A stretch of 19,287 nt of DNA from a virus. This document shows, in pieces, positions 8,882 to 19,287 of this stretch (its first letter is position 1; each line of letters opens with the position of its first letter). The stretch is taken from UHGV virus genome UHGV-0298370; one strand, given 5' to 3'. The notes below the pieces were generated by a model that did not search any database, was not told the origin of the DNA, and saw only the letters and a list, made by a program, of their open reading frames with translations. The position numbers were made by a program, and so were the translations under genes.

Positions 8882-9532
8882 TCAGCGGCTGTCATTGCGC
8901 AGTCTGCGCTCCAGCTGCTGTTTGTCTTTTTTCACGCCACAGCGGGGATCGAGCTGTAACGCATGGTTGAGATGATTAAGGGCGGACGCCGGATTGCTTT
9001 CACTCAGGACAGCGCCAATCGCTTTATGCAGACGCGCCCGTGACTGGTCCGGCATATCCAGACCGTCTGTCAGCTCCAGCGTCTGCAGCAACAGATCGGC
9101 ATCAAAGCCGGTGGCGGCAAGCATTGCGCTCTGCGCGGCGTCTGCCATTTCCTCTGCCAGCACGGTCTGCACGTTGCGGTTACCCAGCGGCATCACCCAG
9201 CCATGACGCAGGGCATGACGCCCGATCTCCAGCGCTCCGGCATAATCTCCGGCATCAATGCGCCACAGCATCACGTACATCAGCACGTCATCCTGTTGAG
9301 CGCCTCCGGCAGCCAGGACACCCTCTGCCCAGGCGGCGTACTTCGGCAGCAGCTCCACCTTGATTTCCGCTTTTTTGACCGTGGACTGAACGCCCTTGAG
9401 ACGGCGGCGGTCTTCCGCCAGTTGCAGCAGCATCAGGTCATAGCCCGATGCGTGGCGAACACTGCCGCCCTCGCGGGCGGCCTGTTCAGCCTGAACGCGC
9501 AGGCGATGCTGCCGTGCGGGACTCAGGCTCAT
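8882..9532 (-). CDS. M: terminase endonuclease (small) subunit gpM
   Basis: 216 aa; MSLSPARQHRLRV...LLPKYAAWAEGVLAAGGAQQDDVLMYVMLWRIDAGDYAGALEIGRHAL... closely parallels P2 gpM. Confidence 0.9.
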   Translation of the reverse strand: MSLSPARQHRLRVQAEQAAREGGSVRHASGYDLMLLQLAEDRRRLKGVQSTVKKAEIKVELLPKYAAWAEGVLAAGGAQQDDVLMYVMLWRIDAGDYAGALEIGRHALRHGWVMPLGNRNVQTVLAEEMADAAQSAMLAATGFDADLLLQTLELTDGLDMPDQSRARLHKAIGAVLSESNPASALNHLNHALQLDPRCGVKKDKQQLERRLRNDSR

Positions 9533-10610: not shown

Positions 10611-11444
10611 TCAGCAATTGGTCAGAGTGTCAGCGGGGGCGTTACCGCCTGTTGCACGCTGGCGGTAGTCCTGGCGGCTGTCTTCATGACTCAGCTTATT
10701 CACCAGTTCGTTAAAGGCGGTCTGCTGTGCCTGCAGGGCAGTCTCCAGCTCAGACAGACGTTCTTCCTGCTCAGACAGGGATTTTTCGGTGCGTGCGCTC
10801 AGGTTCTGCTGCTCAGTGGCGACCAGCTCCACGGCCTTATGCACATCAGAGAACCGGGCGTCATCGGACTGCTCTTTTTTGGTGAACAGCGCCGTGACAC
10901 GGGCAAACAGGGACGGTTTGTCATCCTGGATTTCTTCCAGTTCGATCACCGTTTCCTCTGCAGCGGTAAAGAGATTGGCAGGATTCTGCTTGCGGTTTGC
11001 CAGCGGGTTATGGGCTGCACTGGCGCTGAATGTCAGCATTTCAGTGCCCAGACTGGCAGGGTCATCAGTGGCAGCCAGGCCGACCAGGTAGGCTTTGCCC
11101 GTATCAGCGAACTTCGGGCTGACTTCCATAGAGGTGAATAATTTCTGGCCTTTTTTCACCAGTTCCACCAGGGACTCCGTTGGCTCAACGTCGGCATACA
11201 GCGCCATCTTGCCTGCCAGCGGACCTTCCGTGATTTCTTCAGCAAACAGCGCCGTCACCTTGCCGTAGCGGTTAAAGGTGCTGTCCGGCAGATAAGACTT
11301 GATGTGCTCAAGGTTAATCAGCGCGGTATACACCGCCGGGTTGTAGCTGGCTGCCATCTGTTCCAGCCATTCACGCTGGATTTCGCGTCCGTCGGTGGTG
11401 GCACCTTCCACCCCGATGCGAAAACGCTTTGCTTTCACTGTCAT
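10611..11444 (-). CDS. O: capsid scaffolding protein gpO
   Basis: 277 aa; N-terminal protease-like region MTVKAKRFRIGVEGATTDGREI...YNPAVYTALINLEH and coiled-coil C-terminus, as P2 gpO; first gene of the leftward late operon. Confidence 0.9.
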   Translation of the reverse strand: MTVKAKRFRIGVEGATTDGREIQREWLEQMAASYNPAVYTALINLEHIKSYLPDSTFNRYGKVTALFAEEITEGPLAGKMALYADVEPTESLVELVKKGQKLFTSMEVSPKFADTGKAYLVGLAATDDPASLGTEMLTFSASAAHNPLANRKQNPANLFTAAEETVIELEEIQDDKPSLFARVTALFTKKEQSDDARFSDVHKAVELVATEQQNLSARTEKSLSEQEERLSELETALQAQQTAFNELVNKLSHEDSRQDYRQRATGGNAPADTLTNC

Positions 11445-11586: not shown

Positions 11587-13353
11587 ATGAACACCACACT
11601 GACACCCGCAGATCTCGATCCCCGTCGGCAGGCCATGCTGCTGTACTTTCAGGGATACCGCGTAGCCCGCATTGCTGAAATGCTGGGCGAGAAAGTTGCA
11701 ACCGTTCACAGCTGGAAAAAACGCGACAAGTGGGGTGACTATGGGCCGCTGGATCAGATGCAGCTCACCACCGCCGCACGCTACTGCCAGCTCATTATGA
11801 AGGAGCACAAAGAAGGGAAAGATTTCAAAGAAATTGACCTGCTGGCGCGCCAGTCGGAGCGCCACGCGCGGATCGGCAAGTTTAACAATGGCGGTAACGA
11901 AGCCGACTTAAACCCTAACGTCGCCAACCGCAACAAAGGCCCGCGCCGTCAGCCGGAAAAGAATGTTTTCACCGATGAACAGATTGAGAAGCTGGAAGAA
12001 ATTTTCCATTCCTCCATGTTCAACTACCAGCGCCACTGGTGGGAAGCCGGAAAAACCAACCGCATCCGCAACCTGCTGAAGTCACGCCAGATCGGCGCGA
12101 CCTTTTACTTTGCCCGTGAAGCCCTGATTGACGCCCTGCTTACCGGACGTAACCAGATTTTCCTTTCTGCCAGTAAGGCACAGGCTCACGTCTTTAAGCA
12201 GTACATCATAGACTTCGCCAAAGAAGTCGAGGTGGAGCTGAAAGGCGATCCGATGGTGCTTCCTAACGGAGCCACGCTTTACTTCCTCGGCACCAATGCC
12301 CGCACGGCCCAGAGTTATCACGGCAACCTGTATCTGGATGAATATTTCTGGATACCGAAATTCCAGGAGCTGCGCAAAGTGGCTTCCGGTATGGCTATTC
12401 ACAAAAAATGGCGACAAACCTATTTTTCCACGCCATCCAGCCTGACACACAGTGCTTATCCGTTCTGGTCCGGTGCGCTGTTCAACCGTGGGCGCAACAA
12501 GGCCGACAAGGTGGACATCGACCTGTCCCACAGCAATCTGGCCCCCGGCCTGCTGTGCGCAGACGGGCAATACCGCCAGATAGTCACCGTGGAAGATGCG
12601 GTGCGCGGCGGCTGTAACCTGTTCGACCTTGACCAGTTGCGCATGGAGTACAGCCCGGACGAATACCAGAACCTGCTGATGTGCGAGTTTGTGGACGATC
12701 TCGCGTCCGTGTTCCCGCTCAGCGAGCTGCAGGCGTGCATGGTGGACAGCTGGGAAGTCTGGACCGACTTTCATGCACTGGCTCTGCGCCCGTTTGGCTG
12801 GCGCGAAGTGTGGATCGGTTATGACCCGGCAAAAGGTACGCAAAACGGCGACAGCGCCGGATGCGTAGTGGTGGCACCGCCAGCCGTGCCTGGTGGTAAG
12901 TTCCGCATTCTTGAGCGTCACCAGTGGCGTGGGATGGACTTCCGCGCCCAGGCTGACGCCATCAAAAAACTGACCGAGCAGTACAACGTGACCTACATCG
13001 GCATCGACTCGACAGGTGTCGGCCACGGGGTTTACGAGAACGTGAAAGCGTTTTTTCCAGCCGTCCGGGAGTTTGTCTATAACCCCAATGTTAAAAACGC
13101 CCTGGTACTCAAGGCCTACGACATTATCAGCCACCGCCGTCTGGAGTTTGACGCCGGACACACCGACATAGCGCAGTCATTCATGGCAATCCGTCGCGCC
13201 ACCACCGCGAGCGGCAACCGCCCAACCTATGAAGCCAGCCGCAGCGAAGAAGCCAGCCACGCCGATCTGGCCTGGGCAACGATGCACGCACTGTTTAACG
13301 AACCGCTGCAGGGCGAATCCGCCAATACCAGCAATATTGTGGAGATTTTTTGA
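11587..13353 (+). CDS. P: terminase ATPase (large) subunit gpP
   Basis: 588 aa; N-terminus MNTTLTPADLDPRRQAMLLYFQGYRVARIAEMLGE... and body match P2 gpP; divergent from O as in P2. Confidence 0.95.
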   Translation: MNTTLTPADLDPRRQAMLLYFQGYRVARIAEMLGEKVATVHSWKKRDKWGDYGPLDQMQLTTAARYCQLIMKEHKEGKDFKEIDLLARQSERHARIGKFNNGGNEADLNPNVANRNKGPRRQPEKNVFTDEQIEKLEEIFHSSMFNYQRHWWEAGKTNRIRNLLKSRQIGATFYFAREALIDALLTGRNQIFLSASKAQAHVFKQYIIDFAKEVEVELKGDPMVLPNGATLYFLGTNARTAQSYHGNLYLDEYFWIPKFQELRKVASGMAIHKKWRQTYFSTPSSLTHSAYPFWSGALFNRGRNKADKVDIDLSHSNLAPGLLCADGQYRQIVTVEDAVRGGCNLFDLDQLRMEYSPDEYQNLLMCEFVDDLASVFPLSELQACMVDSWEVWTDFHALALRPFGWREVWIGYDPAKGTQNGDSAGCVVVAPPAVPGGKFRILERHQWRGMDFRAQADAIKKLTEQYNVTYIGIDSTGVGHGVYENVKAFFPAVREFVYNPNVKNALVLKAYDIISHRRLEFDAGHTDIAQSFMAIRRATTASGNRPTYEASRSEEASHADLAWATMHALFNEPLQGESANTSNIVEIF

Positions 13354-14060
13354 TGCCCCCAATCCCAACTAACCTCATGACTATCGCGGGACTTCCGGTG
13401 GATAGCTTTTTCTTTGCTTACCAGTATGAGTGGAACACTGGCCCAAAGAGTAGAAACCGTGTACTCACAAAAATGCGCCAGGCAGGCGCGGATTTCTTTT
13501 TTTCCTATGAAGCCCTGAACGATGCACTGCATACCGGGCGTAACCAGATTTTCCTCTGCTGCAGCACAGCATCTGCGCAGGCAATCAAAGCCTGTGTATC
13601 AGCATTCTTAAGCCAGGCCGCAGCTTATACGCACACTGGAAAAATAAAATCAGGCAAAAGTCATCTGGAGCTTCCGAATGGTGCAGTAATTTATTTTACC
13701 GACCTCAGCAGTCTCACCTCCGCACTCAGTGGAAATGTTTACGTGTCAGAGTATGCCTGGAGTGAATCACCGAGAAATATGATTGCCATCGCTAAAGGGA
13801 TTTCTATGCACGCACACTACCACGCCACCTACTACACCACTCCCAGCCCTAACCCAGAGGCACGGCAGGAATATAAAAAGCTATGCAGAAACAACAGCGT
13901 AACCAGCATGGTGTTCACCGCAGATGACGCAGCAGCATCTGGAGCAATGTTGTTTACTGATAACTGGCTGAACGATATGAAAAAAGAATTATCAGAAGAG
14001 GACTGGAAAATGCTGTTTATGTGCGAATGGCCTCTCGCTAGCAAGGAACTGGCAGAATGA
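13353..14060 (+). CDS. terminase-ATPase-like paralog (truncated, diverged copy of gpP central region)
   Basis: ATG at 13353 overlaps the P stop (TGATG) and its stop overlaps the Q start (ATGA). Protein aligns by eye to gpP residues ~140-400 (FAYQYEWNTGPKSRNR / FNYQRHWWEAGKTNRIR; EALNDALHTGRNQIFL / EALIDALLTGRNQIFL; GNVYVSEYAW / GNLYLDEYFW). A 24-nt stretch at 13532-13555 is 23/24 identical to 12141-12164 in P. Confidence 0.6.
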   Translation: MPPIPTNLMTIAGLPVDSFFFAYQYEWNTGPKSRNRVLTKMRQAGADFFFSYEALNDALHTGRNQIFLCCSTASAQAIKACVSAFLSQAAAYTHTGKIKSGKSHLELPNGAVIYFTDLSSLTSALSGNVYVSEYAWSESPRNMIAIAKGISMHAHYHATYYTTPSPNPEARQEYKKLCRNNSVTSMVFTADDAAASGAMLFTDNWLNDMKKELSEEDWKMLFMCEWPLASKELAE

Positions 14061-15085
14061 GCAAACGTAAAAACACCAAGCAGGTAACAGTTGATCACGA
14101 CACAAAACCAAGCAACGGCCCAACGGCTGAGGCTTTCAGCTTTGGTGATCCCATCCCCGTGCTGGACCGCCGCGAACTGCTGGACTATGTGGAATGCGTA
14201 CAGATGGATCGCTGGTATGAGCCGCCCGTCAGCTTTAATGGACTGGCGCGCACCTTCCGCGCCGCCGTGCATCACAGTTCCCCGATTGCAGTAAAGTGCA
14301 ACATTCTGACCAGTACCTATATCCCTCATCCGCTGCTTAGCCAGCAGGCTTTTTCGCGTTTTGTGCAGGACTATCTGGTATTTGGTAACGCCTACCTGGA
14401 GAAACGCACGAACCGCTTTGGTGAAGTTATCGCCCTTGAGCCAGCTTTGGCAAAATACACCCGACGCGGATTAGACCTGGATACCTACTGGTTTGTGCAA
14501 TACGGTATGACAGCCCAGCCGTATCAGTTCACGAAAGGCAGCATTTTTCATCTGATGGAACCGGACATCAACCAGGAGATCTACGGCCTGCCAGGTTATC
14601 TTTCTGCCATCCCGTCAGCCCTGCTCAACGAGTCCGCCACACTGTTCCGCCGTAAGTATTACATCAACGGCAGCCATGCAGGTTTCATCATGTACATGAC
14701 CGATGCCGCGCAGAACCAAGAAGATGTGAACAACCTCCGCAACGCAATGAAAAGCGCCAAAGGGCCAGGCAACTTCCGCAACCTGTTTATGTACTCTCCT
14801 AACGGCAAAAAGGACGGGCTTCAGATTATCCCGTTGTCAGAAGTCGCGGCGAAGGATGAGTTTCTGAATATCAAGAACGTGAGTCGGGACGACATGATGG
14901 CGGCACACCGTGTGCCGCCGCAAATGATGGGGATAATGCCTAATAATGTTGGGGGCTTTGGAGATGTAGAGAAGGCGAGTAAAGTATTTGTACGTAATGA
15001 ATTATTGCCATTGCAAAAAAGATTACAAGAAATAAACAATTTCATAGAAGAAGGTGTTATTGAATTCCAAGAATACCATTTCTAA
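14057..15085 (+). CDS. Q: portal protein gpQ
   Basis: 342 aa; ...EAFSFGDPIPVLDRRELLDYVECVQMDRWYEPPVSFNGLARTFRAAVHHSSPI...NESATLFRRKYYINGSHAGFIMY...NGKKDGLQIIPLSEVAAKDEF... matches P2 gpQ. Confidence 0.95.
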   Translation: MSKRKNTKQVTVDHDTKPSNGPTAEAFSFGDPIPVLDRRELLDYVECVQMDRWYEPPVSFNGLARTFRAAVHHSSPIAVKCNILTSTYIPHPLLSQQAFSRFVQDYLVFGNAYLEKRTNRFGEVIALEPALAKYTRRGLDLDTYWFVQYGMTAQPYQFTKGSIFHLMEPDINQEIYGLPGYLSAIPSALLNESATLFRRKYYINGSHAGFIMYMTDAAQNQEDVNNLRNAMKSAKGPGNFRNLFMYSPNGKKDGLQIIPLSEVAAKDEFLNIKNVSRDDMMAAHRVPPQMMGIMPNNVGGFGDVEKASKVFVRNELLPLQKRLQEINNFIEEGVIEFQEYHF

Positions 15086-15087
15086 TT

Positions 15088-15118
15088 AAAAAAAAGGGAG
15101 GCAACCTCCCTTTTTTTT
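15088..15118. terminator. bidirectional rho-independent terminator between convergent Q and cargo gene
   Basis: A8-GGGAGG-CAA-CCTCCC-T8: 6-bp GC stem, 3-nt loop, flanked by A-run and T-run so it reads as a terminator on both strands; overlaps the TAA of the minus-strand cargo gene. Confidence 0.75.
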
Positions 15119-16883
15119 AAACATTATCGTATAACTCTTGTATTTTCGTTGGATTTGCAAAAAATCTTGCCGGATAGGCATTCGGGTAATTATCTTCAAT
15201 GTACTCTTCAGCACGTTGAATTAATGCACTTAATTCTTCGGAAAGATTTTTTTCATCTGGAACAAGAATTTCTGAGCTATTATGTATCCCAGAAACGTTG
15301 CTCAATAGTACAGACGCATAGTATCTATTACCATGCGTAATAATTAAATGCTTGCGACTATGGGTCGTTTTATCTACTGATAGTAATGTTTTACCGATCA
15401 ACTTATCTATAACTCTAAAATGTAGAACAGTATTGATAAGTTTTAAACCACTTAATCTTGGATTGAAAATAGTTTTATATAGAGAGCCTTCAAAATTTTC
15501 AAAAAACCTACCGCGATTTGATTTTAGTGTCGATACAACCGTATTATTTTTACTTAAACATGCGAGTGCATTGAGCGCCTCATCCAAGTCAATGACTTTC
15601 GTATTTGTCTGTGAATGATCTTCATCTGTTCTTAGTAACTGATATTGATATCCTTCAAGCACTAACTCCCTTGCCAATCTATGTTGATCTGCCTGCTGCG
15701 ATGCAAAATCTCTTCCCAATACTCTATTTTGGAAATTGTTAGCTTTTGTAATTGCATTTGCAGTTAAATTATCAGTATCATCATCTATAACAATGAATCT
15801 AGCTGGCACTTTGAGTCTATATATGTTTTCACCAAGCGCATCTTTACATGCGCCAATACTACTGACTGTTTGTGCACCATTAATGACACTTACATCACGA
15901 AAATCAAAAATCCCTCTCTCTATATTAGGAGCTGCGTTTCGTCTATGAGGAACAACTTCCTTAACCAGTACAGTAATCCCATTATTATAAAACCAAAACA
16001 TATCAGGATTATCTATAGCTGTCTTTTTTATTTCCTCATTCACTTCTGTTTTACCAAGCATATTCCTTATGTTTTTTGTAAATAATCGAGCACCATGCTC
16101 TTCCCACCATTCTGCAACTTGATCACCACTAATAGCCCCGTAAAAAGCTTGATATGGTTCATTCAAAAATCCAAAACGCTCAATTTCAACCCTGTTAAGA
16201 TCAATTTGATTTCGAGAGCCATTCTGTAACCAATGCATCATATCTTCAGAGGATATTAAATGAACCTGAAATCCCCAGTTCTCTTTAGGCTCATCCTCAG
16301 GTGTAAAAGCTGCAGCGTTTAATTGATATTGCCATTCCCGCATATCATTTAATATTTCCTCTGCAGCACCTTTTTTACCTGTATGCGCCATCGCAAAGAT
16401 GAACTTGTATTCAAAACTACTTAAAGCCGCACTTATTTCCCCGCTTTTATTTTGCAATATGGAATCAAATAATTCGTATCTTTCACTTTGTAGCTTCTCA
16501 CAAGCATCCTTAAAACACATAAAATCGGCTCTTGTCCAAGTGCCGTTTCCCGATTGGTGAAATTTTGATTGAACAACAACAACGATTTTTTCGTTATGGT
16601 TGATTGCTATTCCATCTATACCACCATCTTCACTACTATCACATACAGACTCCCCTGCATACTTATCATCCACACATCCTAACTGATACATAGTGAATGC
16701 AGCTAAAGCCCTGCTAGCCATTTTTACATCATAGTCTGCTTGGCCTGGTGCACACTCTCTTTTATGGATGAATTCTTCATATCTCTTACGTAATACAGAT
16801 CCTAGCCTCTGAGCCATAACCTGTGCTGTCGCAGGTGCAGCAATAGCATTATCTTCAAGCCGAATATCAGTTACAAAAGCCAC
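15117..16883 (-). CDS. Mrr-type nuclease-domain protein with AIPR-like architecture (candidate abortive-infection/defence protein)
   Basis: Long AT-rich ORF; start uncertain (TTG 16940 without SD, GTG 16883 with GGAGGG SD, ATG 16817). N-terminal motif SEDGGIDGIAINHNEKIVVVVQSKFH resembles the Mrr catalytic PD-(D/E)xK core (D-G-G-I-D ... Q-x-K). Size and layout are reminiscent of AIPR-family proteins; not verified by HMM. Confidence 0.65.
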   Translation of the reverse strand: MAFVTDIRLEDNAIAAPATAQVMAQRLGSVLRKRYEEFIHKRECAPGQADYDVKMASRALAAFTMYQLGCVDDKYAGESVCDSSEDGGIDGIAINHNEKIVVVVQSKFHQSGNGTWTRADFMCFKDACEKLQSERYELFDSILQNKSGEISAALSSFEYKFIFAMAHTGKKGAAEEILNDMREWQYQLNAAAFTPEDEPKENWGFQVHLISSEDMMHWLQNGSRNQIDLNRVEIERFGFLNEPYQAFYGAISGDQVAEWWEEHGARLFTKNIRNMLGKTEVNEEIKKTAIDNPDMFWFYNNGITVLVKEVVPHRRNAAPNIERGIFDFRDVSVINGAQTVSSIGACKDALGENIYRLKVPARFIVIDDDTDNLTANAITKANNFQNRVLGRDFASQQADQHRLARELVLEGYQYQLLRTDEDHSQTNTKVIDLDEALNALACLSKNNTVVSTLKSNRGRFFENFEGSLYKTIFNPRLSGLKLINTVLHFRVIDKLIGKTLLSVDKTTHSRKHLIITHGNRYYASVLLSNVSGIHNSSEILVPDEKNLSEELSALIQRAEEYIEDNYPNAYPARFFANPTKIQELYDNV

Positions 16884-16985
16884 AGTCCCTCCATAAAGAC
16901 ATCTGGTACAACTCAATGCTGGGAATAGTGCACATTTCAATGAGATAAATCCACTAATAATCTAGGATTTATGAGTTAGCGCGCG

Positions 16986-17004
16986 CTCGTATCCCCGCCA
17001 CGCC
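16986..17004 (-). other. putative cos site (cohesive-end sequence) of the P2-like phage
   Basis: Minus-strand sequence GGCGTGGCGGGGATACGAG followed by CGCGCGC resembles the P2/186 cohesive-end sequence as I recall it (P2: GGCGAGGCGGGGAAAGCAC TGCGCGC); orientation is correct, with the 5' end pointing toward Q. Depends on my recollection of the P2 cos. Confidence 0.45.
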
Positions 17005-17053
17005 TGCCCGCTTTGTGTAGTGGTTTTCATGCAGGTGCCTGATCCACGCAAAA

Positions 17054-17073
17054 GCCCGCCAGTTCTGGCGGGC
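17054..17073 (-). terminator. probable rho-independent terminator downstream of the DUF2971-like gene
   Basis: GCCCGCCAG-TT-CTGGCGGGC hairpin; on the minus strand it is followed by TTTTGCG; lies ~70 bp past the stop of the minus-strand gene 17140-18258. Confidence 0.5.
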
Positions 17074-17139
17074 CTTAGCAAAAACGATCCTCAAACGGTC
17101 ATGCAAATTCAGGCAGCATAGGCATGCACTGTTGTTAGG

Positions 17140-18258
17140 TTAGTTCGTAATGCCAATTTCCTTCAAAACTTTAGCCATTTCCGTCTGACTTAACTTGTTC
17201 CTGAACAAAGGGAAATTTTTCATTTTTTCCGCTCGTTGCCCTTTTGAAATAGTAATCTTTCCTGATGCTGATAACTCAGAGTCAAAAAAATAACATATTG
17301 TTGAATTTGAATTCTCCATATTTGACTTGATACAATTCCATATGCTTTCTTTTTTCATTTCACACATTCTAGGACCAAAAATGATCCCTTTAACAACATT
17401 AGCATCATGATGAAAAATATGTCCAATATTTCGATTTACGCGTCTTTGAACATGCCGCTCACTCCCTATTCCTGCATTTGCCTCTGGAATAAACATTCGA
17501 TATTCAGCTTCATATCTCCAAAATCTATTTTTAGTTAAAAATAACTCTGCAACATTTGCGCTTGGGTCTAGAAGTGAAACCTCTTTAGCCTGATTACTAT
17601 ATTTTATTTGCTTAACTGGAAAATTAAATTTATCTGATGAAAATAAATTTTCTCTTAGCTTCATTCCAGGATGTGGCACGCCATTAATATTAAAATCCTG
17701 CGTTTCATAAATCACAACACAACCACTAAAGCCTGCAGCATAATGCGCCCACATCATACGATCTAACGCATTAGCTGAAAATGACACACTGAATACTGCA
17801 GGAACTATTTTCCTATACAACCTTTCTTTGATACTGTTCTCGCAAAGTGAGACCAAAAATTGGCGTGGTTCAGGAATATTCCCATAAATAGCGGAATTAA
17901 TCACATTGATAGGTAGTAAACCATCATTTATGATCTTACGTATCTCATCAACGTGTGAGTCAAACAGGCTATCTAATGACTCAATGCTACTTTTTATTTT
18001 TTTTCCTCTAAAAATACGATTCAATCCCTTATGTATCTTCAAATTACTCAAATCTAATATGTGACTCAAATTTTCATAGGATTTATCGCAAGGAGAACGC
18101 AATAAAATATCCCATAATTTCAATTTATTATCAAAACGATAATCTATATTGAGATCATTAGGATCATTCAATTGCGCAGGAGCGGAAAAATATAATTCAT
18201 TATAACGAATAGCTTTCTCGAAGAAGAAGTCCGGACGGTAATACTTGAAAAGATACAT
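17140..18258 (-). CDS. DUF2971-like protein (candidate defence-associated protein of unknown mechanism)
   Basis: 372 aa, AT-rich; N-terminus MYLFKYYRPDFFFEKAIRYNELYFSAPAQLNDPND matches the hallmark DUF2971 N-terminal pattern (KY..........LYFS.P..xNDPxD); ATG start; terminator-like hairpin downstream. Confidence 0.7.
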   Translation of the reverse strand: MYLFKYYRPDFFFEKAIRYNELYFSAPAQLNDPNDLNIDYRFDNKLKLWDILLRSPCDKSYENLSHILDLSNLKIHKGLNRIFRGKKIKSSIESLDSLFDSHVDEIRKIINDGLLPINVINSAIYGNIPEPRQFLVSLCENSIKERLYRKIVPAVFSVSFSANALDRMMWAHYAAGFSGCVVIYETQDFNINGVPHPGMKLRENLFSSDKFNFPVKQIKYSNQAKEVSLLDPSANVAELFLTKNRFWRYEAEYRMFIPEANAGIGSERHVQRRVNRNIGHIFHHDANVVKGIIFGPRMCEMKKESIWNCIKSNMENSNSTICYFFDSELSASGKITISKGQRAEKMKNFPLFRNKLSQTEMAKVLKEIGITN

Positions 18259-18712
18259 GACATTACCTATAACATTGCAATATTAACAACCGTATGAAAA
18301 CGGTTTGATTGTATTGATAATATCCTATTCTGCATATACCACAGTGTAAAGATTAATTTTAAATACCATATCCAACAGTAAATCATGTATCGACCGCCAG
18401 ATAAGAAGCTTTTGAAAAACTTGGACAATAATTAATCAAAAGGTAAGAGATACTCTTCAAATACATGACGTTGGCTTCCTCTTTCGTGATAACTATCAAG
18501 ACCAAGTCCATTAGATAATGGACATCAAATATTCCAAGTCAATCCAAGAACAATCATCATAAGCTCTTCCCATCCTGTATCCTCTATCTCACTCTTTTGG
18601 ACATTGAAAGAAGCCCCTCTGACCGGGAATGATTGTTTCCAGCGTTTGACCACGATATACAATATGATATTTGATGTCTTTTGATCAGATGGCTAACGCC
18701 TCGCACAGCTCG

Positions 18713-18852
18713 TTGTTCAACCTTGCTGACGCCAGAAGCAAGTTCAGACGCCAGCAACGTTTCTTAATGCAGCCAGCTGTCGTCTTCCCACACCTTCTGC
18801 ATAATTTTCATCACTTGTTTTCTTTCTTCGTCCAGTTGCAGTCCGGTCAGTT
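18713..18852. repeat. direct repeat copy A (140 bp, truncated 3' gene fragment)
   Basis: 140 bp with 2 mismatches to 19148-19287; contains a minus-strand frame ending ...LTGLQLDEERKQVMKIMQKVWEDDSWLH-stop (stop 18765-18767) that is closed by a stop ~38 codons upstream, so this copy is a fragment. Confidence 0.7.
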
Positions 18853-19147
18853 CAACACCATTAGAGCTACCTTTACGGGCTGCAAATTACCTTTTGGGAT
18901 TTGTGATAGATACGAAAATCCTATTAGATGCTTGTTAGACCGGAAGCGCCACTTCGAACGAAAAGTAATGGCCACTTATGCCGGTTTAAAAGCCTTAACC
19001 TTGTATAGTTATTTGAATATTTTCTTCATTAACACCAAAGTATAGGGCTAGCCCTGCTTTTGCCTCCTGAAGTGTTAACGGCTTAACTACATTTTCTTCT
19101 TCTTCTTCGTACTCATCACCCCCCATGACTAATGCCCCACTAAACTA

Positions 19148-19287
19148 GTTGTTCAACGTTGCTGACGTCAGAAGCAAGTTCAGACGCCAGCAACGTTTCT
19201 TAATGCAGCCAGCTGTCGTCTTCCCACACCTTCTGCATAATTTTCATCACTTGTTTTCTTTCTTCGTCCAGTTGCAGTCCGGTCAGT
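19148..19287. repeat. direct repeat copy B (140 bp, continues beyond window end)
   Basis: Matches 18713-18852; truncated by the window edge. Confidence 0.7.
19200..19287 (-). CDS. 3' end of a gene entering from beyond the window (C-terminus ...LTGLQLDEERKQVMKIMQKVWEDDSWLH)
   Basis: Open minus-strand frame running off the window edge, stop codon TAA at 19200-19202; identity unknown. Confidence 0.4.
   Translation of the reverse strand, partial: LTGLQLDEERKQVMKIMQKVWEDDSWLH

Follow-up and report, generated by a model that had tools for sequence, protein, structure and literature searches.

A Putative cos Site of the P2/186 Type Between Two Cargo Genes of an Escherichia coli Prophage

Comparison of a 19,287-nucleotide stretch of viral DNA (UHGV-0298370, hereafter the window) with P2-like phages revealed a 151-bp conserved module on the minus strand, 16979 to 17129, that is very probably the functional cos site of an apparently complete E. 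coli prophage of the 186/Fels-2 type (Peduoviridae). In sequence and orientation, and in lying between the replication/accessory end and portal gene Q, it agrees with P2/186-family cos sites, and homologs of gpP and gpM are encoded in the same element as the predicted cohesive end. The literature already contains the site, the variant form of its sequence and the neighbouring cargo slot, and the finding is correct and ordinary.

Sequence of the Predicted Cohesive End

Direct reading of the window placed the 19-mer GGCGTGGCGGGGATACGAG on the minus strand from 17004 to 16986, preceded by GCGGGCA (17011 to 17005) and followed by CGCGCGC (16985 to 16979). In its wider context, AAAGCGGGCA lies 5' of the 19-mer and TAACTCAT follows CGCGCGC on the 3' side. 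The original prediction that the minus strand reads this 19-mer followed by CGCGCGC is thus borne out. We take 16986 to 17004 (minus strand) as the predicted 19-nt cohesive end, a 5' overhang that matches the ends of 186 and P2, equals the annotated cos of phage SEN8 and is found in ~45 IMG/VR loci. Positions 16979 to 17011 of the same strand form a cosN-like cleavage region, GCGGGCA^(19-mer)^CGCGCGC, with a predicted nick at each border of the 19-mer. We infer the nick positions from the termini of the P2 and 186 records, and cleavage at these exact positions, together with packaging activity, from homology.

The P2 record (AF063097) opens with GGCGAGGCGGGGAAAGCAC TGCGCGC and the 186 record (U32222) with GGCGTGGCGGGGAAAGCAT TGCGCGC, and both annotate positions 1–19 as the cohesive end, so the likeness to these ends that had been put forward is correct. 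The P4 record, too, is bounded by annotated cohesive ends. The 19-mer of the window agrees with 186 at 15/19 positions and with P2 and P4 at 14/19 each, and its first 13 bases equal those of 186 exactly. An alignment with the P2 and 186 cos regions, suggested as a check when the site was proposed, disclosed homology over a 55-bp core, with identities of 43/55 (186), 41/55 (P2), 44/55 (P4) and 54/55 (SEN8); over the whole 151-bp module, the window matches SEN8 at 133/151 positions. Shared with P2 and 186 are a 19-nt G+C-rich 5' cohesive end that opens with GGCG(T/A)GGCGGGGA and lies between AAGCGGGCR and YGCGCGC, the 55-bp core with TGCAT boxes upstream of it, and a location between the accessory/replication end and the portal gene, reading toward the portal. 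In contrast, the final six bases of the overhang are TACGAG in the window and AAGCAT or AAGCAC in the two phages. Relative to Q, the site is oriented as its counterparts in P2 and 186 are, as had been claimed; however, it is not the 5' end that lies toward Q but the 3' end, since the 19-mer reads 5' to 3' toward Q.

The record of Salmonella phage SEN8 (NC_047753, Felsduovirus) opens with GGCGTGGCGGGGATACGAGCGCGCGC, 26 bp that are identical in the window, and its positions 1–19 are annotated as 'putative cos site'. This record represents DNA from phage particles, and one BLAST match ends exactly at the end of the record, which is the base preceding GGCG. SEN8 was isolated as a temperate, plaque-forming phage, and its announcement names the exact 19-mer as cos by way of annotation (PMC5427200). 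A full-text literature search for GGCGTGGCGGGG returned that announcement as the sole match to the exact 19-mer, and no experimental determination of the ends was found; the remaining matches were to related 19-mers or unrelated topics. The identical 26-mer also occurs in Klebsiella phage Kp4845-2 and in E. coli p10A and E423, the SEN8 form of cos being that of Fels-2/RE-2010-type and Klebsiella prophages as well. Like the window, SEN8 carries cargo between cos and portal (2.2 kb, two genes), but its cargo is a hypothetical protein and an HNH endonuclease in place of an AIPR-family gene, and its host is Salmonella instead of E. coli.

Architecture and Extent of the Conserved Module

When the ends of P2, 186, P4 and SEN8 are joined and aligned with the window, a common plan of the module emerges, and an alignment of 122 sequences agrees with it. 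Toward Q, the plan begins with three TGCAT boxes at about -124, -111 and -101, followed by a spacer with a GCCAG..CTGGCG palindrome (present in most members, absent from P2), then by an ATGCA..TGCAT pair at -35/-29, and finally by AAAACC..AAGCGGGCR, the 19-mer and YGCGCGC. The distance from TGCAT(-29) to GCGCGC is exactly 55 bp (29 bp + 19 bp + 7 bp), and this stretch, TGCATGAAAACC..AAAGCGGGCA plus the 19-mer and CGCGCGC, occupies 16979 to 17033 on the minus strand of the window. Its counterpart in the literature is the '55-bp core' that PMC5694545, PMC3931495 and PMC9594776 quote from Ziermann & Calendar 1990.

Among the 122 unique modules, TGCAT starts at -124 in 69, at -111 in 75, at -101 in 64 and at -29 in 119, whereas the entire window holds only 15 and 27 occurrences on its two strands. 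The boxes are putative recognition repeats for terminase, presumably for its small subunit. In the window they lie on the minus strand at 17124 to 17128 (-124), 17111 to 17115 (-111), 17101 to 17105 (-101) and 17029 to 17033 (-29), where the last one opens the 55-bp core. The -111 box is degenerate (TGCCT), with C at 17112 where >90% of the relatives have A; likewise, the upstream ATGCA box beside the -29 box has G at 17039 where >90% have T. These are the only differences from the ≥90% consensus (2/100 columns), both fall in TGCA(T) boxes, and deviations of this size lie within what the other loci show. Should the boxes be contacted by terminase, the substitutions at 17112 and 17039 could reduce packaging efficiency.

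The flanks of the 19-mer are quasi-symmetric: one strand has GCGGGCA up to a predicted nick, and the opposite strand has GCGCGCG up to the second predicted nick. Both flanks are invariant or nearly so across the family. Such near-mirror flanks fit two symmetric nicks, and paired nicks of this kind would account for the exactly 7 conserved bp on the Q side. Folding of the 19-mer region disclosed no structure beyond that of shuffled controls (z = -0.01), which argues that cosN is not a hairpin element. A G+C-rich hairpin is predicted further upstream, at 17050 to 17076 on the minus strand (GGCCCGCCAG-aa-CTGGCGGGC, then TTTT; -24.5 kcal/mol, z = -4.3), and it resembles a terminator that would act on transcripts entering from the neighbouring DUF2971 gene. 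A scan for consensus terminators missed this hairpin as well as the terminator between the portal and AIPR genes described below; folding detected both. The spacer palindrome, GCCAG-NN-CTGGCG, is kept in 186 and most relatives and altered in P4 (GCCATTCCCGGCG). It may serve to bind a protein or to terminate transcription; a T run on its 3' side was seen only in the Fels-2-type group.

The arrangement recalls the cos of lambda (cosQ-cosN-cosB), where a nicking site with partial two-fold symmetry also stands beside repeated short boxes, presumably binding sites of the small terminase subunit. The two do not resemble each other in sequence, the overhang is 12 nt in lambda and 19 nt here, and unlike in lambda, the conserved flank in the family of the window is almost wholly one-sided. 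P2 matures monomeric circles, not concatemers.

To delimit the module, IMG/VR was scanned with GGCGWGGCGGGGA-N7-GCGCGC, which returned 120 loci, ~45 of them with the exact 19-mer of the window. In 36 unique loci with this 19-mer, column identity is ~0.8–1.0 from -125 to +26 (17129 to 16979 in the window), where columns 0 to +25 are set by the search pattern and the upstream 125 bp are free, and it falls to 0.3–0.5 directly outside on both sides. A BLAST search of 50,697 phage records gave 84–89 that match the cos region at 88–92% identity, with E-values down to 9e-56 and hosts including Klebsiella, Yersinia, Salmonella and Escherichia. These matches are restricted to about 16966/16979–17130, with edges at 16966–16979 and 17127–17130. 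Column identity and the ends of the BLAST matches together define the 151-bp module (16979 to 17129, minus strand) with variable cargo on either side. In the 36 loci, the conserved flank thus measures 125 bp on the side away from Q and only 7 bp on the Q side.

Prophage Context and Alternative Readings of the Site

The genes around the site follow the order DinI / DUF2971, cos, AIPR, portal, terminase, as in 186. The large terminase, a homolog of P2 gpP and the expected cos-cutting enzyme, is encoded at 11587 to 13353 on the plus strand (Terminase_6N, Terminase_6C, Terminase_5). Its presumed partner in cos recognition, a gpM homolog that RefSeq names 'terminase endonuclease subunit', lies at 8882 to 9532 on the minus strand, as mapped from the annotation, and a scaffold protein gene lies between the two (10611–11444, minus strand). 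An additional ORF of 236 aa sits between P and Q (13350–14060, plus strand) and carries a terminase N-domain (Pfam Terminase_6N, 3.7e-16). The similarity is to the ATPase domain at the N terminus of the large terminase, with a weak DNA match to the terminase gene (13356–14122). The same ORF is present in 186, where it is annotated as 'W protein similar to Orf12', and in locus L079; it is absent in p10A, Kp4845-2, SEN8 and loci L023, L026 and L111, in which P and Q abut.

The 3.4 kb around the site (15000–18400) are 99.9% identical to four complete E. coli chromosomes. In the 99.9% identical genome NZ_CP049967, the 43 kb covered include integrase, CI, CII, replication endonuclease, DinI, portal, both terminase subunits, capsid, lysis and tail genes, up to the start of the tape-measure gene. 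The sole pseudogene in this stretch is a frameshifted 'phage tail protein' beside a recombinase gene. Judged over these 43 kb, the prophage, only part of which lies in the window, looks complete. Two further features of this region were observed. A 163-nt direct repeat (18689–18851 and 19125–19287, 94% identical, 436 bp apart, the second copy reaching the end of the window) lies in the DinI-like/small-ORF region between the replication gene and the DUF2971 cargo. Outside the window, a DUF4041 gene is located between the integrase and CI genes of NZ_CP049967 (11343–13019 of locus L131); integrase-adjacent defence hotspots in P2 are listed in PMC13586616.

An alternative to a functional site is a relic, that is, a homologous cos in a defective prophage or one weakened so that it no longer supports cutting and packaging. 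The two substitutions in otherwise highly conserved TGCA(T) boxes would suit a relic, as would E423, in which the same AIPR cassette sits in a clearly degraded prophage with truncated portal and tail genes. However, the module remains at consensus in 98/100 conserved columns, which is within the range of other loci, and the NZ_CP049967 prophage looks complete. Moreover, the same variant module (99.5–99.9% identical) occurs in prophages with other cos-Q cargo (p10A; L111 at 98%), and its presence beside different cargo argues for recent mobility. We therefore consider a relic unlikely.

Far less probable still is a cos that belongs to a P4-like satellite integrated beside phage genes and not to the prophage itself. 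P4-type satellites do have the same 55-bp core with a cargo hotspot right after GCGCGC, and several IMG/VR loci with the search pattern show no portal in the sequence covered. Nevertheless, the site in the window lies between the prophage's own replication/DinI region and its portal/terminase genes, in the order of 186, and P4 genes (alpha primase, sid, delta, psu) are absent; the satellite reading was rejected on this gene context. The idea of a chance G+C-rich match unrelated to cos, to which the mere 15/19 agreement with 186 might lend itself, is refuted to the point of being negligible by the 13-mer GGCGWGGCGGGGA (≤1 mismatch), found once in the window against 0.05 expected, by homology of the flanking 150 bp to the cos regions of 89 phage records, by the 26-mer identical to that of SEN8, and by the 36-locus conservation profile.

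Cargo on Both Sides of the Module

The 19-mer of the probable cos stands 1900 bp from the portal stop codon, in agreement with the ~1.9 kb of cargo, the Mrr/AIPR-like gene, that had been predicted between cos and Q. The corresponding distance is 176 bp in 186 and 167 bp in P2, counted from the 19-mer (1–19) to the Q stop (187), and not the 'about 130 bp' first assumed for P2. The interval holds a single gene, of the AIPR family and AbiU-like, at 15117 to 16883 on the minus strand (Pfam AIPR, 7e-35; PADLOC AbiU, 6e-25; RefSeq annotation), which encodes 588 aa from the GTG start chosen by RefSeq, the longest ORF extending to 16940. This gene points away from cos and is convergent with the portal gene, a homolog of P2 Q and 186 W at 14057 to 15085 on the plus strand. 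Between the two, folding revealed a perfect bidirectional intrinsic terminator, A8-GGGAGG-CAA-CCTCCC-T8, at 15086 to 15120 (-19.9 kcal/mol on either strand; z = -6.9 and -5.5).

Portal homology to relatives with other cargo stops 45–67 bp short of the stop codon (about 15018–15085 in the window), and the final codons vary by locus. This endpoint suggests that the last portal codons travel with the cassette, so the C-terminal tail of the portal seems to be exchanged jointly with the cargo.

Occupation of the cos-Q interval is common. Among the 27 loci with the same 19-mer in which the portal was found, 23 contain about 0.5–3.4 kb (568–3390 bp) and only 4 show the short 186-like distance of 170–192 bp, giving an overall span of 170 to 3390 bp. 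At P2-type sites the distance is mostly 176 bp, and four have 2.0–3.2 kb. Almost every locus has a different sequence directly after GCGCGC.

On the other side of the module, a DUF2971/PDC-S31-like gene (3e-23) occupies 17140 to 18258 on the minus strand and would form the right end of the virion chromosome. The two cassettes assort separately. The window combines DUF2971 and AIPR on the two sides of cos, E423 has the same AIPR cassette opposite a DarT/macro neighbour, and p10A and L111 have the DUF2971 cassette opposite other cargo; the DUF2971 cassette therefore swaps independently of the AIPR cassette. Unrelated cassettes are thus found at the same place between conserved flanks in related phages, and by this comparison the 1.9 kb that separate cos from Q are genuine cargo.

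Accessory genes on either side of cos are a known and common arrangement in this phage family. Retrons Ec67 and Ec86 were described as cargo between cos and Q of 186-related prophages by Dodd & Egan 1996 (Virology 219:115), as cited in PMC5694545 and PMC7826664, and ctx in phiCTX (Nakayama 1999) is likewise cargo of the cos-portal slot, as cited in PMC5694545. As these citing papers present the Ec67/Ec86 prophages, at the level of the slot, foreign DNA there replaces the short stretch from cos to the end of the portal operon, the same slot as in the window, with a retron in place of an AIPR/AbiU-like gene. The gpA-gpQ region as a whole is a defence hotspot of P2-like phages (Rousset et al. 2022, PMC9122126), confirmed on thousands of elements (PMC13586616). 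The AIPR and DUF2971 genes fall inside this region of variable, largely defence-related genes between replication gene A and portal Q.

Because terminase recognition sequences flank cos, the original prediction raised the concern that cargo inserted here might affect them. The cargo lies outside every conserved part. P4 is packaged by the P2 terminase and has the core cos in common with P2 (PMC9122126), yet in the alignment the two share nothing past GCGCGC on the Q side, and the cargo hotspot of P4 itself begins right after GCGCGC. Since Q-side conservation ends at 7 bp in the 36 loci, with none past +26, and P4 diverges from P2 at the same point, the cargo interrupts no conserved part of cos, and disruption of terminase recognition by the insertion was rejected. 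Together with the 2.2 kb carried at this place by the plaque-forming SEN8, these observations suggest that the insertion point is permissive.

By homology with P2 and 186, terminase (the gpP and gpM homologs) would act after replication and would recognise ~125 bp on the non-Q side, a stretch with four to five TGCAT boxes at set positions and the initial 29 bp of the core. A pair of nicks spaced by 19 nt, each immediately 3' of a GCG(G/C)GCR half-site, would then yield a linear chromosome with GGCGTGGCGGGGATACGAG as 5' overhangs. In the virion DNA, the AIPR/AbiU-like gene would come to lie at the very left end and the DUF2971 gene at the very right. The cargo genes occupy two slots that adjoin the cos module and can be exchanged separately, of which the one on the Q side begins 7 bp past the overhang and runs into the last codons of the portal gene.

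The hotspot papers treat the A-Q region as one, whereas the window shows two independently reassorting slots with the 151-bp module between them. Tentatively, then, the gpA-gpQ 'hotspot' might be read as two independently assorting slots split by the cos module, which is perhaps a homology anchor for cassette exchange; we regard this as possible rather than established. Each slot has already been described separately and only the synthesis would be new; that A-Q is split in two by a sharply bounded module is not spelled out in the hotspot papers and is a modest refinement. If this reading is true, the edges of the module (125 bp/7 bp) would mark the full cis requirement of Peduoviridae terminases, cassettes of the left slot would bring their own terminator and replace the last 15–22 portal codons, and cargo genes would lie at the very ends of the chromosome that is injected.

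For this phage group the comparison yields a practical rule: on the portal side, all sequence past the 7 bp that follow the overhang is free for cargo, and on the opposite side ~125 bp are conserved. This is useful for delimiting defence cassettes and for designing P2/P4-type cosmids. The rule merely restates the implications of the P2/P4 work, of Dodd & Egan 1996 and of the hotspot papers, and past correct annotation the finding matters little. For the prophage itself, a cos at 16986–17004 would fix the ends of the virion chromosome, and its placement would make the AIPR/AbiU-like and DUF2971 genes phage-borne cargo carried in the particle.
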